Shown: positions 22,679-38,383 of the stretch, piece after piece | Numbering within the stretch: the first letter of the stretch is position 1 | Layout of the letters: each line of letters opens with the position of its first letter | IMG/VR virus record: IMGVR_UViG_2537561944_000042 | Length of the DNA stretch: 57,168 nucleotides | Reading direction: 5' to 3' (one strand) | Source: a virus | Taxonomy: Duplodnaviria; Heunggongvirae; Uroviricota; Caudoviricetes | Made by a program: the position numbers and the translations under genes | Notes under the pieces: generated by a model | Database searches by the model: none | Seen by the model: only the letters and a program-made list of their open reading frames with translations | What the model was told of the DNA's origin: nothing

Positions 22679-23044
22679 TTAGGCGGCTGATGTTTCTTCT
22701 TTCAGGCTTTCGAGATATTTACGTGGGTCGTCGTAACATTGGCATTCGCTGTACCAATCCACCCAGCGATCAGTAAGCCCCACCTCTGATAAATCTTCAT
22801 CGGTAAGGCTCTCATCCCACATCTCAAGGCCGTTAGCATTGCAGTAATCAGGCTTGATGTTGTTGTCATACTGAAAGGCGTCATAATCAGCCAGTGCGCC
22901 CATCAGGCGAACACCCTCTTCAACACTTGCCACTTCTGCAATGAACGGTTTCATAGGTACTTGCGGGATATGCCAGACACGTAATTTCATATTTCCTCCG
23001 TCAAAAAAATCGCCCTCACATTGGAGGGCAAAGAAGATTTCCAA
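22679..23044 (-). CDS. hypothetical phage early protein
   Basis: 121-aa ORF; likely start at internal MKLRVWHIPQ. Confidence 0.4.
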   Translation of the reverse strand: MEIFFALQCEGDFFDGGNMKLRVWHIPQVPMKPFIAEVASVEEGVRLMGALADYDAFQYDNNIKPDYCNANGLEMWDESLTDEDLSEVGLTDRWVDWYSECQCYDDPRKYLESLKEETSAA

Positions 23045-23133
23045 TAATCAGAACAAGTCGGCTCCTGTTTAGTTACGAGCGACATTGCTCCGTGTATTCA
23101 CTCGTTGGAATGAATACACAGTGCTTATTCGTA

Positions 23134-23604
23134 CTAATAAAATACCCAATTTTCTGTTTCTTGGTTGTGTCCAAAGTTATATTCAATATCTGGTGTTGAT
23201 GTATCAATATTTTTCATCCCATCAACAAGAGTTGATACAACAGCCAAATCTTGTTTTATTCTCATTAAATGGTATTTCTTCCGGCGCAATAAACTTTCAA
23301 TAGCAAGTTTCTTCGTTGGGAATGCAAAAGATCTTTCTGCATTTTTTGCTACTTTCTTAATTGCATATCTATTTCTCTTTTGTTTCCATTCCTGTAACCA
23401 CTGATTTGGTGCTGGTTTAAAATTAACAATCCAATGCGCAGGAACCAACCATGCATAATGCTCTGTCTGATGAAAAGCTATATATTGAAGTGCGAATATT
23501 TTGATTCCATCTTCTTCAACTGTCGCCTGGAATCTCCAGAAAACAGGCATTCCATCATGTTCAGTTTCTGATTCAGGAAAAGGTACGCTCCATGATTTTG
23601 TCAT
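23134..23604 (-). CDS. hypothetical protein (AT-rich moron-like gene)
   Basis: 156-aa ORF; AT-rich relative to neighbours. Confidence 0.45.
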   Translation of the reverse strand: MTKSWSVPFPESETEHDGMPVFWRFQATVEEDGIKIFALQYIAFHQTEHYAWLVPAHWIVNFKPAPNQWLQEWKQKRNRYAIKKVAKNAERSFAFPTKKLAIESLLRRKKYHLMRIKQDLAVVSTLVDGMKNIDTSTPDIEYNFGHNQETENWVFY

Positions 23605-23804
23605 ATCTCACCTCAAATAAGTGGTTTGCTGTCTAATTTCATTTTCTGGCGACCAACACAAGTCACACCCATTTCACTGCGTGGCTTGCGGTAGTAAAGA
23701 TTGTGCCTGTCTTTTAACCACATCAGGCTCGGTGGTTCTCGTGTACCCCTACAGCGAGAAAAATAGTAAAATCCTCTTACCCCTACAGTAAGAGAGTAAT
23801 TTAT

Positions 23805-24299
23805 ATGGATGTGTTATCTGGTATAACTGCCGCGAAACAGGCTTATGATCTGCTGAAGACAATAAAAGAAACCAGAGACGATGCTGTTATCGCTAAAGCT
23901 ATTGGTGATCTACACCAAAGAATAACTGACTTACAGATGCTTAATGCGGAGCTCTCTGGCCTTTATCAGGCCGAGAAGGAGATCGCAATGAAGCTTCGAG
24001 ATGAAAATAGAAAAATCAAGATGTTTGTTGTGCAAGCTGAGAATTATGAACTTCATACAACTGAAGGTGGTTCTGTCGTGTATCGACCTAAGAGTCATTC
24101 CGATCCTTCTATTCAGCAGCATAACCTTTGTGCACATTGCTTCGGCGAACATAAAATATCGATACTTCAACCAAGCACGGTTACTATAAAATCTAATGGG
24201 TTCTTTGTGCATTCATGTCCTCGCTGTAAGAATGAATACCGGATGTATAGAGCGCCAGACCCTAAGCCTGTATATGTACCGCCGCTGACAAATTATTAA
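23805..24299 (+). CDS. hypothetical protein with C-terminal zinc-ribbon-like CxxC...CxxC, encoded antisense to the early-left operon
   Basis: 164-aa ORF on the opposite strand; CAHCFGEH and CPRCKNE motifs; AT-rich. Confidence 0.5.
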   Translation: MDVLSGITAAKQAYDLLKTIKETRDDAVIAKAIGDLHQRITDLQMLNAELSGLYQAEKEIAMKLRDENRKIKMFVVQAENYELHTTEGGSVVYRPKSHSDPSIQQHNLCAHCFGEHKISILQPSTVTIKSNGFFVHSCPRCKNEYRMYRAPDPKPVYVPPLTNY

Positions 24300-24329
24300 T
24301 TTTATTCCTGAAATGGCCTCTTCACCCCC

Positions 24330-24776
24330 TTACTTTGTCAGGGGGATATCTCCTTCAGTTTTGACCATTCGCCTTAATACTTTCCTTAAGTCGATGTAAA
24401 GTTGAAGGTCTCCATTTGCTGCGGCATCAGCCATTTTTTGCCTGACAAGCAGTAATGTTTCATACGGCTCAATAAGAATATCGTCATGAGTAATTAGGTG
24501 AAGCGTTGCCGCATCAACTATTCCTAGAGCTGCGCCAAGTATCAAAAATTCCCTGCTATTTTTGTCGCATGAGGAGATAAGCGTATTTAGCGCATACCTA
24601 ATATTCTTTATAGCTGTTGTTAATGCTGCAATTTCTTCTATGGCGTCTTCTCCAATGAGCTTTTTAAGCTCATATTTTTCTTCCTGACCCATAATTACCT
24701 CGCCGTCAGTTGTTTTGATTTCCGGTAGCCTGCCGCGTAAATGGCTACGTTTGGCAGGCAAATACTTCCACTGCAT
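24330..24776 (-). CDS. hypothetical phage early protein
   Basis: 148-aa ORF. Confidence 0.45.
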   Translation of the reverse strand: MQWKYLPAKRSHLRGRLPEIKTTDGEVIMGQEEKYELKKLIGEDAIEEIAALTTAIKNIRYALNTLISSCDKNSREFLILGAALGIVDAATLHLITHDDILIEPYETLLLVRQKMADAAANGDLQLYIDLRKVLRRMVKTEGDIPLTK

Positions 24777-24967
24777 TCATCTGCCTTCTTGCAGCGAAGG
24801 CTTCCGAGTGATGCTGCTTTATCTGCTCTGACGCAACCAGAGAGCTTTAGCGCAATTTTTCGTGCCAATCGCTGTTCTTGCATTGCCTGTTCACGTTGAG
24901 CCTGTCTGCGTGCTCTGCGGCGATTTCTGGCGTTATCGTCAGCCAGATATGTAATGACTACTGTCAT
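24695..24967 (-). CDS. putative N-like antitermination protein (arginine-rich motif)
   Basis: 90-aa ORF beginning MTVVITYLADDNARNRRRARRQAQREQAM...; first gene leftward of the immunity region. Confidence 0.4.
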   Translation of the reverse strand: MTVVITYLADDNARNRRRARRQAQREQAMQEQRLARKIALKLSGCVRADKAASLGSLRCKKADECSGSICLPNVAIYAAGYRKSKQLTAR

Positions 24968-25400
24968 GTTGACCTCCGATGATTGACTTTGGCGGTGACG
25001 CGCCGCGTGCTTATCTTCCGGTTGCCGTCTTGCAGCTGCACTTCACGTCACCCCAAAGCCAACTACTCTTTGGTTCCCGCATTTCGGCGGGACAATCCCA
25101 TCAATGTTAAAGAGCCTGCCAATCTGTTCCGTTTGGCTTCCAGCGTCCTGCTGATGGCTTAAAGATAACTTAGGTTATAGGTGTGGTCAATAACCTAATT
25201 TATATTTTATGGTGAATAGGTTATAAGTGATGGATAACAAAGGTATTTTATTTTTGTAAATGTTGCTGATTGATTGGTGTTTGAGGGCTTGCGTGCGGGG
25301 TGAAGGTGTTACCTTTGGCTTGATGCTTGTCTATGATGAGGATGGTTGATTGGGTGGTGAACGGCAGGAAAAGAAAACCCGGCGCTGAGGCCGGGTGTTT

Positions 25401-25697
25401 TTAGTCTTTTCTTTTGCTTAGCATTTCGTCGATTTCTAAGTCAATACGATATTGATCTATTGCTTTTCTCTCGTTTGGGGTTGGTATTTTATACTGTTCA
25501 ATTAGATCTGTTGTGTATTTTATTTCATCTAATGTGATTTTTATATCAGAGAGAATCTCTTTTATATCAATTATATGCTCTTCTTCTTTTGCACGATTAG
25601 AGCTATGTTCAATCATTTGAGATAGCTTTTTACTAATGCTTAGCAAAACAAAAAGAATGATGACCAAAACAACAACAAAAACTATCAGAAATTCCAT
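25401..25697 (-). CDS. small single-pass membrane protein in the rex/sieB position between N and repressor
   Basis: 98-aa ORF; N-terminal TM helix FLIVFVVVLVIILFVLLSI; very AT-rich. Confidence 0.5.
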   Translation of the reverse strand: MEFLIVFVVVLVIILFVLLSISKKLSQMIEHSSNRAKEEEHIIDIKEILSDIKITLDEIKYTTDLIEQYKIPTPNERKAIDQYRIDLEIDEMLSKRKD

Positions 25698-25737: not shown

Positions 25738-26445
25738 TTACCAACTATGAGACGACCAGAATACTCTGCCAATAATCCTTACGGTTTCATGAAATTCATC
25801 TCTATCCATTACTTCATCCGGGTACTCTTCGCGATTTATTGATCTGATTATCACCGATGTAGGGGTGGCGATTAATGTTTTTACTCGTAACAAATCAGAC
25901 TGGCAAATAGCGTAGGTTTTACCATCTCTGATTGTGGTATCTTGCGTGTTAACACCAACAACATCGCCATCGTGAAGCGTTGGTTCCATGCTTTGCCCTA
26001 CAACCCTAACTAGCTTGGCTGATCTTTCAGATACTCCCATCTTTTTCAGATAGTGCTTTCTGAAAACCAAAGAGAACTCCGATGATTCCTCTAGCTCGCA
26101 GCTACCGCTTCCAGCTGAAAGCGAAACGTTAAGAAGAGGCAACGCAACAAACTCGTCATCGTTTCTTTTAATGTCTTCCCATACCACAGCTTTTAAAGAT
26201 GAATCACGGACATTGGATGGTTCTTCATGTGCACCATCCCTCATTTCACCAATACCAGAACTAAGCCATTCAGGGCGCACTTTTAAAGCATTGGCTAATT
26301 CAACCATCTTGCGAGATCCGTTTGTTTTACCGGACGACATCTTCTGTATGGCTGGCTGAGATATTCCAACCATGTCAGCAAGCTGTGATTGTGATACCCC
26401 TGCTGAGCTCATGGCTGCATTTAGTCTTTCTGCGAATGTTTTCAT
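25738..26445 (-). CDS. CI-like phage repressor (HTH_XRE plus LexA/S24 peptidase domain)
   Basis: HTH LADMVGISQPAIQKM; S24 motif GQSMEPTLHDGDVV; ATG at 26445 (track start at 26475 is TTG); divergent to cro. Confidence 0.85.
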   Translation of the reverse strand: MKTFAERLNAAMSSAGVSQSQLADMVGISQPAIQKMSSGKTNGSRKMVELANALKVRPEWLSSGIGEMRDGAHEEPSNVRDSSLKAVVWEDIKRNDDEFVALPLLNVSLSAGSGSCELEESSEFSLVFRKHYLKKMGVSERSAKLVRVVGQSMEPTLHDGDVVGVNTQDTTIRDGKTYAICQSDLLRVKTLIATPTSVIIRSINREEYPDEVMDRDEFHETVRIIGRVFWSSHSW

Positions 26446-26556
26446 ACCCACAAATCTATAACTACGGTTATCCAAAGTAAAATAACAAAGGTTATTGCTA
26501 TTTTTTATAACTTGAGTTATCTTTGGTTATAAGTAATGACCACAAGAGGTATGCTC
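26446..26556. promoter_or_regulatory. repressor-cro intergenic operator/promoter region (OR-like)
   Basis: Divergent cI and cro starts; repeated TTAT(N)CCAAAG / CTTTGGTTAT half-site-like motifs. Confidence 0.4.
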
Positions 26557-37957: not shown

Positions 37958-38383
37958 ATGGCGACTGAGAAAAAGAAAGGTGGTCGCCCCTCTGATTATA
38001 TGCCGGAGGTGGCTAATGACATTTGCGCATTGCTTTCCTCCGGTGAGAGTCTGCGCAAAGTTTGCGAACGCCCAGGAATGCCGAGCAAAACATCAGTTTT
38101 TCGCTGGCTGGCTGAACATCAGGAGTTTCGTGACCAGTACGCGAAGGCAACAGAGACTCGGGCCGACTCTATTTTCGAAGAGATATTCGAAATTGCTGAC
38201 GACGTAATCCCTGATGCCGCCGAGGTGGCAAAGGCAAGACTTCGCGTTGATACCCGCAAATGGGCGCTGGCCCGAATGAATCCCCGTAAGTATGGCGACA
38301 AGGTAACTAACGAGCTTGTCGGCAAAGACGGCGGCGCAATCCAGATTGAAACATCACCGATGAGCACTCTATTCGGAAAATGA
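37958..38383 (+). CDS. terminase small subunit (Sf6 gp1-like)
   Basis: 141-aa ORF MATEKKKGGRPSDYMPEVANDICALLSSGESLRKVCERPGMPSKTSVFRWL...; HTH; directly upstream of TerL. Confidence 0.8.
   Translation: MATEKKKGGRPSDYMPEVANDICALLSSGESLRKVCERPGMPSKTSVFRWLAEHQEFRDQYAKATETRADSIFEEIFEIADDVIPDAAEVAKARLRVDTRKWALARMNPRKYGDKVTNELVGKDGGAIQIETSPMSTLFGK

Follow-up and report, generated by a model that had tools for sequence, protein, structure and literature searches.

A probable Rip1-family abortive-infection gene in the sieB slot of an Stx1a-converting lambdoid phage

What is a gene on the plus strand doing inside the leftward early operon of a lambdoid phage? The question is raised by an ORF in a 57,168-nucleotide stretch of viral DNA (the window, by which we mean the whole stretch analysed). 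The window represents a lambdoid Stx1a-converting phage and is 100% identical to LC744178 over the tested stretch. The locus lies in the leftward pL operon, with both antiterminator N and cI (25738-26475) on the minus strand, and the order of genes leftward from N is a 120-aa gene, the plus-strand ORF, a 156-aa gene and a homologue of the superinfection-exclusion protein gp17 (PF17420). The original prediction, made from the sequence alone, had grouped the first three of these into a moron-like cluster, and all three ORFs are found at the coordinates it gave; in particular, the 164-aa ORF is indeed on the plus strand, antisense to the leftward operon (Table 1). Its protein is 99.4% identical to HK620 hkaP (AAK28864), and we treat the two as the same gene with no difference of substance. 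The HK620 record (2001) labels hkaP 'unknown; putative superinfection exclusion protein', a positional label without mechanism. We propose that hkaP is a Rip1-family abortive-infection gene that occupies the lambdoid sieB slot in convergent orientation to N and is read from a sieB-type promoter, and we put the probability of this reading at roughly 0.8. Its basis is observed homology to Rip1, a fold match, a shared locus and a shared promoter, while the pore mechanism is taken from the literature.

Table 1. Positions of genes and candidate regulatory elements around hkaP (window coordinates)
Feature	Position	Strand	Basis and remarks
L0079-like gene (as in 933W), 156 aa	23134..23604	-	35.0% GC; on pL-operon strand; separate mosaic module missing in HK620
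Portable sieB-type promoter cassette	23704..23804	+	Homology to HK446, lambda and P22 upstream regions
Upstream hairpin AACCAC/GTGGTT	23716-23737		Cassette element
Predicted -35, TGTACC	23742-23747	+	Transferred from P22 by alignment
Direct repeat 1, ACCCCTACAG	23745-23754		Overlaps -35
Predicted -10, TAAAAT	23767-23772	+	Transferred from P22 by alignment
Terminator-like hairpin, 9-bp stem then ATTTTACTATTTTT	23773..23795	-	Consensus scan only; overlaps repeat 2 and hkaP leader
Predicted +1	A23779	+	Transferred from P22 sieB RNA start
Direct repeat 2, ACCCCTACAG	23779-23788		Begins at +1
Purine-rich SD	around 23789-23796	+	26-nt leader predicted for hkaP
hkaP-type gene, near-certain Rip1-family member, 164 aa plus stop	23805..24299	+	Homologues, fold, dN/dS
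Two short hairpins, CCCCCT/AGGGGG and AGGGGGA/TCTCCT	24325..24354		30-nt gap between convergent hkaP and hkaQ; read from sequence, one scan match
hkaQ-like gene, 120 aa	24330..24692	-	HK620 annotation; phrog_7374; first gene after N in pL operon
Antiterminator N	24695-24967	-	Pfam PF25694 N_peptide, E 1.1e-15; HK620 annotation; convergent with hkaP

Conservation of hkaP and the mosaic nature of its surroundings

The antisense position of hkaP, together with the tL1 terminator that the authors of the HK620 genome predicted inside it, would fit a spurious ORF. A search of 5.8 billion proteins nevertheless returned 34 homologues at 48-99% identity, all unnamed, in prophages of the Enterobacterales genera Salmonella, Serratia, Yersinia, Pantoea, Hafnia, Edwardsiella, Sodalis and Enterobacter. 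Pairwise comparison gives a dN/dS of 0.18-0.29 at saturated dS, and an alignment of 24 homologues contains 26 invariant columns, C109, C112, C138 and C141 among them. Since homologues extend to 48% identity, dN/dS is low and the invariant columns include all four cysteines, we consider hkaP a real gene; with the confident fold and the homology to a solved protein described below, a spurious ORF is refuted, and its probability is next to nil. The absence of homologues had been named in advance as an outcome that would speak against the gene, and the search gave the opposite. The two CxxC pairs noted near the C-terminus are confirmed as CAHC at residue 109 and CPRC at residue 138 and do not vary among homologues. 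Homologues also keep an antisense 93-aa ORF at 23931-24212 open, but without a conserved start codon, and we judged it a frame artefact of hkaP. This allele of hkaP is present in 66 of 5426 complete E. coli genomes.

Annotation resources offered little guidance. None of the three ORFs had a significant match in Pfam, NCBIfam or PADLOC, and each falls in a PHROGs family of unknown function; PADLOC (2023) has no model for the Rip1 family and returned only noise, and Pfam contains no family for Rip1 proteins either. No RNA family was found by Rfam in 22900-25450. Our literature search on 'hkaP' and 'L0079' found nothing relevant and no experiment on an HkaP-type allele.

The idea of a three-gene cluster did not survive comparison with related phages. 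Compared with HK620, the window contains an inserted segment, 23134-23703, that carries the L0079-like gene; compared with 933W, which lacks hkaP at the corresponding site, the inserted segment is 23667-24696, with hkaP and hkaQ as one block. Because these mosaic junctions are separate, the three genes do not form one unit. Both flanking ORFs are read from the operon strand. They come from different mosaic modules, and neither is consistently found beside hkaP elsewhere; there is no sign that either is a moron or acts with hkaP. Both are nonetheless real conserved genes without an assigned function, much as had been supposed, except that the right-hand one was drawn too long. The ORF 24330..24776 is the longest reading and overlaps N, whereas a 65%-identical hkaQ homologue begins at the position of Met28 and the HK620 annotation gives the gene 363 nt; the true start is therefore almost certainly 24692. 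For hkaQ, we found only five homologue clusters, of which the divergent one begins at Met28, no PDB or Pfam match, and presence in 95 of 5426 E. coli genomes. We also considered hkaQ as a conserved partner of hkaP and rejected it, as Hafnia and HK446 lack it and Serratia has another ORF in its place. The L0079-like gene is far more common (593 of 5426 E. coli genomes; 32 homologues with 49 invariant columns) and yielded no usable structure or match. It is also the real compositional outlier of the locus, at the 5th percentile of GC content. The AT-richness ascribed to hkaP holds only weakly, at 41.4% GC against 46.4% for the window (14th percentile among 495-nt windows).

Membership of HkaP in the Rip1 family

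When the HkaP family profile was searched against the PDB, the only match was Rip1 in 9OOX (9oox_L, E 8.4e-18, query residues 16-148 against chain residues 28-158), and the single HkaP sequence likewise matched 9OOX only (E 1.8e-10). This entry is titled as phage HK446 Rip1 complexed with T6 small terminase. Its Rip1 chain is HK446_037 itself (E 2e-106; 12 chains in the entry), and the chain A set (11 chains) matches a T-even gp16 sequence. The window's own small terminase was considered as a partner of the 9OOX type and rejected, being of the Sf6 gp1 type instead. Direct BLASTP comparison of HkaP gave 28% identity to HK446_037 (E 4e-14) and 27% to Pseudomonas JBD30_030 (E 1e-16). The aligned HkaP and Rip1 sequences share the motifs NYE-H, VVYR-K, H-LCA-CY, SILQ and C-RC and all four cysteines, and the CxxC...CxxC arrangement of HkaP, a putative metal site, aligns with the cysteine pairs of both HK446 and JBD30 Rip1.

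Structure prediction, which the original prediction had proposed as a check, leads to the same family. The alignment-based AF2 model of HkaP (pLDDT 84.6) places helices at residues 3-22 and 26-78 ahead of a small beta / zinc-ribbon domain (about 80-150). In other words, HkaP is predicted to have the long N-terminal helices and small C-terminal beta domain expected of Rip1. In a Foldseek search with this model, the only matches at E<=1e-3 were the Rip1 chains 9oox_M and 9oox_L (E 6e-7, probability 1.00, TM 0.69). Amphipathicity of the N-terminal helices is moderate (hydrophobic moment up to 0.42-0.46, mean hydrophobicity near 0), a value compatible with a pore-forming helix though not discriminating, and HkaP has no hydrophobic segment. 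Taken together, the sequence comparisons make it nearly certain that the plus-strand protein is a homologue of Rip1.

Within this family, HkaP occupies a small corner. A HMMER search of 1.84 billion representatives found 2135 representative clusters of the Rip1 superfamily at E<=1e-3, nearly all of 145-175 aa, and just nine belong to the HkaP subfamily at E<=1e-30. HkaP is also shifted in register relative to HK446 Rip1, which has about 11 extra N-terminal residues, whereas HkaP has about 15 extra residues in a Pro-rich C-terminal tail (APDPKPVYVPPLTNY) absent from HK446 Rip1. We class hkaP as a new and divergent Rip1-family gene, at 28% identity, rather than as a new type of system.

A portable sieB-type promoter cassette

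The region upstream of hkaP suggests how the gene could be expressed in the lysogen. This cassette aligns with the DNA that precedes sieB in phage lambda, in P22 and in a large number of E. coli prophages. Among 5426 complete E. coli genomes, 988 contain it, and its left edge coincides with the mosaic junction seen against both HK620 and HK446. In the curated record of P22, the sieB promoter and the sieB RNA start lie on bases homologous to window positions 23742-23779, and it was solely through this homology that the hkaP promoter was located. A consensus promoter scan missed it owing to its poor -35 hexamer; the sites that the scan returned were overall no more numerous than in shuffled sequence. 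Most likely, hkaP is expressed from the prophage via this sieB-type promoter. Thus, the central guess of the original prediction, an independently expressed opposite-strand anti-phage gene with a zinc-ribbon C-terminus, has gained Rip1 homology in both sequence and fold as well as an upstream promoter annotated in P22, although nothing points to the lysogenic conversion that it also mentioned, or to virulence. With its predicted own promoter, its insertion relative to related phages and its opposite-strand orientation, hkaP has the marks of a moron.

The closest parallel is rip1 of HK446, which occupies the same slot, on the opposite strand and convergent with N, although HK446 lacks the further gene, hkaQ, that separates hkaP from N in the window. 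The 104 nt upstream of HK446 rip1 (window 23704-23807) are 99% identical to those of hkaP, even though the two proteins share only 28%. A second parallel is with the JBD30_030-type Rip1 of P. aeruginosa Mu-like prophages, which like HkaP is a prophage-encoded protein of 164 aa read from the strand opposite to its neighbours. However, JBD30 is a different type of phage, its rip1 lies in the late operon between terminase genes rather than in a pL operon, and no sieB-type cassette was found upstream of it.

The third parallel is SieB itself. SieB, a membrane protein, comes with an in-frame product that confers self-immunity (Esc) and with an antisense RNA (sas). The sieB genes of lambda and P22 share the slot, orientation and promoter of hkaP and have a prophage-expressed abortive-infection function. 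Given this common placement, repeated in many E. coli prophages, and the HK620 note, hkaP might be read as a member of the SieB family or as a mechanistic copy of SieB. Yet HkaP shows no similarity to P22 SieB (BLASTP E 1.5), has no match to PF14163, to which P22 SieB scores 4.3e-29, and lacks a hydrophobic segment. Family membership is thereby refuted, and we regard the SieB reading as a whole as very improbable; on the sequence comparison, HkaP is a positional analogue that shares slot and promoter with SieB, not a protein homologue. Nor does HkaP have a supported counterpart of the internal start of lambda/P22 Esc. A candidate at Met73 was rejected, as HK446 and JBD30 Rip1 have Trp there.

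A further feature of the cassette is a pair of exact 10-nt direct repeats, 34 bp apart, that are the only exact copies of ACCCCTACAG in the window. Both are invariant in lambda, P22, HK446, HK620, Serratia, Hafnia, Yersinia and vB_EcoM-689R2, in contrast to the saturated synonymous sites of the adjacent gene. In PhiR29_2 and Klebsiella Kp4884-1, which have other Rip1 alleles, both repeats are replaced by TCCCCAACAACAA with a 33-bp spacing. This concerted change between alleles indicates that the two copies are functionally coupled. No alternative sigma-factor consensus fitted the repeats in a by-eye comparison.

Such matched repeats at -35 and +1 raise the question of whether HkaP could be a zinc-ribbon nucleic-acid-binding regulator of the DksA/TraR kind, or an autoregulator acting on the ACCCCTACAG repeats of its own promoter. 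DksA is built of a coiled coil and a C4 finger, and a coiled coil with four cysteines in about 160 aa recalls it; there is also a weak Pfam match to Zn_ribbon_SprT (E 0.014), below the cut-off. On the other hand, no Pfam match to DksA/TraR (zf-dskA_traR, E<=0.1) or to any DNA-binding family was found, DksA is not among the fold matches, and the only significant matches in sequence and fold are to Rip1. Moreover, lambda and P22 have these repeats in front of sieB, a gene unrelated to hkaP, which makes the cargo protein an unlikely ligand. We consider a regulatory role for HkaP highly unlikely.

Based on the concerted replacement of both repeats, it is tempting to speculate that the cassette is a portable regulated expression module for interchangeable defence cargo, namely SieB, at least three Rip1 allele types and possibly other small ORFs. 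The repeats would then be putative sites for a factor that, together with antisense transcription from pL or pR', would silence the cargo when the resident prophage turns lytic. This idea is tentative, and we would give it about one chance in four. The classical lambdoid sieB slot is a site of cassette exchange, at which unrelated or highly diverged defence genes sit under one promoter, and ORFs 3' of the cassette offer a mining route to new prophage defence genes.

Other possible signals around hkaP are less conserved. A terminator-like hairpin read on the minus strand across repeat 2 could stop unmodified leftward transcripts after they have crossed hkaP, but it is not kept in register in Serratia, Hafnia or lambda. 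At the other end of the gene, the two short hairpins between hkaP and hkaQ may be transcript-end structures; they are not conserved in homologous loci, among which comparison revealed no conserved terminator downstream of hkaP, and no dedicated terminator was found. By contrast, the hairpin at the upstream end of the cassette retains its pairing via covarying changes. This hairpin alone also occurs in SfV and in a Klebsiella phage, where it precedes other small plus-strand ORFs.

Proposed action of HkaP and its genomic settings

Rip1 (ring-interacting pore 1) was described by Patel et al. (Nature 2026, 651:1060), whose work is considered here as summarised in a review (PMC13434031). In that summary, Rip1 is a single prophage-encoded protein, non-toxic alone, with homologues common across proteobacterial prophages. 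Phages that escape Rip1 carry mutations mapping to the portal (Pseudomonas phages) or the small terminase (E. coli phages), and in the complex an 11-mer terminase ring is encircled by 12 Rip1 monomers. The pore is attributed to an N-terminal amphipathic helix and the ring contact to the C-terminal half; liposomes exposed to the complex leak dye and cells are perforated, with premature lysis of the infected cell as the result. The review also places the P. aeruginosa Rip1 gene between the small and large terminase genes (PMC13434031), in agreement with the position of the JBD30 gene. As far as their accounts of Rip1 go, a meeting report and a later paper agree with the review.

By analogy with Rip1, HkaP quite probably acts as a ring-triggered, pore-forming abortive-infection protein, at odds similar to or slightly below those of the overall reading. 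In a lysogen, the promoter near A23779 would transcribe hkaP rightward independently of the cI-repressed pL. HkaP would accumulate as a soluble and harmless protein made up of N-terminal amphipathic helices and a C-terminal four-Cys zinc-ribbon domain. Upon infection, the latter domain would bind late ring oligomers of the incoming phage, presumably small terminase or portal. About a dozen copies of HkaP would gather round the ring, their N-terminal helices would open a pore in the inner membrane, and the cell would die before the completion of progeny. Both the trigger specificity and the pore activity are extrapolated to HkaP from characterised Rip1 proteins at 27-28% identity.

That low identity may also be taken to mean that HkaP is a diverged homologue that no longer provides pore-forming defence and serves the phage instead, by binding its own or host ring oligomers to modulate packaging or by countering a competitor's defence. 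The tail APDPKPVYVPPLTNY, missing in HK446 Rip1, and the viability of hkaP-carrying phages such as HK620 would be compatible with such a role. However, HkaP has kept its full length, both domains and the conserved motifs under purifying selection, and its gene shares slot and promoter with HK446 rip1 and sieB, both of which are exclusion genes. Furthermore, an antisense placement in lytic operons suits a gene expressed in the lysogen rather than a lytic helper. A phage-serving role thus appears unlikely to us, and we continue to favour abortive infection.

If abortive infection is indeed the role of HkaP, a gene that has been 'hypothetical' since the sequencing of HK620 in 2001 acquires a probable function, and an Stx1a prophage would carry an abortive-infection gene of the Rip1 type. 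Since Rip1 in the one solved case recognises the small terminase of a T-even phage, such prophage genes could blunt T4-like phages used in STEC biocontrol.

How would the resident phage itself escape? N-modified pL transcription would read antisense through hkaP. Upon induction of its own prophage, this N-antiterminated transcription would probably turn hkaP down. More generally, read-through from pL, pR' or late promoters might damp Rip1-type genes during lytic growth of the resident phage. In all of the contexts examined (at least ten), hkaP or rip1 is antisense to its neighbours. All Rip1-gene contexts examined are prophages or phages; the neighbours vary, and no partner gene is conserved alongside. 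In Hafnia, the hkaP homologue directly abuts N, while in Serratia a different ORF lies in between. In Yersinia pseudotuberculosis and Enterobacter, the homologue is located between the Q antiterminator and the holin, and the Yersinia homologue at this site retains the cassette. The Rip1-family genes of PhiR29_2 and vB_EcoM-689R2 are found near the repressor gene, and that of a Pelagibaca phage lies among early genes of the opposite strand.

Promoter repeats and the hairpin beside them

The sieB-type promoter upstream of hkaP, the Rip1-family homologue, carries ACCCCTACAG twice, at the -35 and at +1, with a spacing of 34 bp, and this pair is unchanged in the compared loci of lambda, P22, HK446, HK620, Serratia, Hafnia and Yersinia. 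PhiR29_2 and Klebsiella Kp4884-1 instead have TCCCCAACAACAA at both places, a concerted replacement with a spacing of 33 bp. The cassette formed by this promoter stretch is bordered by a conserved hairpin, the stems of which covary in Serratia and Yersinia. SfV and the Klebsiella phage ST974-OXA48phi18.2 have the hairpin without the promoter repeats, and downstream of it other small plus-strand ORFs are found, encoding 81 aa and 76 aa, the latter with two CxxC pairs. The hairpin may represent a recombination "boundary sequence" of the HK620 kind. Such elements have reportedly been described in HK620.

Features discussed in this part (window positions unless a compared locus is named)
Feature	Position	Strand	Remark
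gp17 homologue (superinfection exclusion)	22679-23044	-	PF17420, E 3e-53
Strong terminator-like hairpin	23031-23010	-	counterpart of HK620 tL2A
933W L0079-like gene	23134-23604	-	
Hairpin AACCAC-N10-GTGGTT	23716-23737		left edge of cassette; conserved
Hairpin without promoter repeats	about 801-835		loci L022, L023
ACCCCTACAG pair	23745-23754, 23779-23788		
TCCCCAACAACAA-type pairs	2432/2465; about 843/876		loci L017; L021
93-aa ORF	23931-24212	-	antisense to hkaP
hkaQ, 148-aa long form	24330-24776	-	
Strong bidirectional terminator-like hairpin	25377-25396		after 98-aa ORF
98-aa ORF	25401-25697	-	directly 3' of cI; rexB/HK620 hkaS position
Small terminase, Sf6 gp1 type	37958-38383	+	PDB 4DZJ, E 1e-80

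Genes and reading frames around hkaP

Of 5426 complete E. coli genomes, 593 carry the L0079-like gene, and a single genome can contain as many as four copies. Its product has an N-terminal half rich in Trp and other aromatics and an invariant RRKKYHL motif; a search for its function, fold and literature found none. As for hkaQ, the minus-strand gene next to N, its long form is labeled "antitermination N domain protein" by NCBI. The 28 extra residues of this form arise where the 3' end of N is read in a different frame, and they are absent from a homologue with 65% identity; the label is apparently an artefact of annotation. No stop codon interrupts the 93-aa ORF antisense to hkaP in any of the five homologous loci, yet its start codon is not kept across them. 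Most likely it is a by-product of the codon-aligned antisense frame and not a gene.

Other prophage genes

With 29% GC, the 98-aa ORF is the strongest compositional outlier of the region. It belongs to the PHROGs family phrog_18389, to which no function is assigned, has no match in Pfam, NCBIfam or PADLOC, and its N-terminal segment is hydrophobic. We regard its product as a candidate membrane protein expressed from the prophage. Since the Pfam match of the gp17 homologue begins only at residue 19, the ATG at 22990, just downstream of the tL2A counterpart, is probably its true start codon. Finally, the phage's own small terminase is of a different type from the ring that the characterised HK446 Rip1 binds, which is formed by T-even gp16; this difference bears on the possible triggering of a Rip1-like protein by its own prophage.
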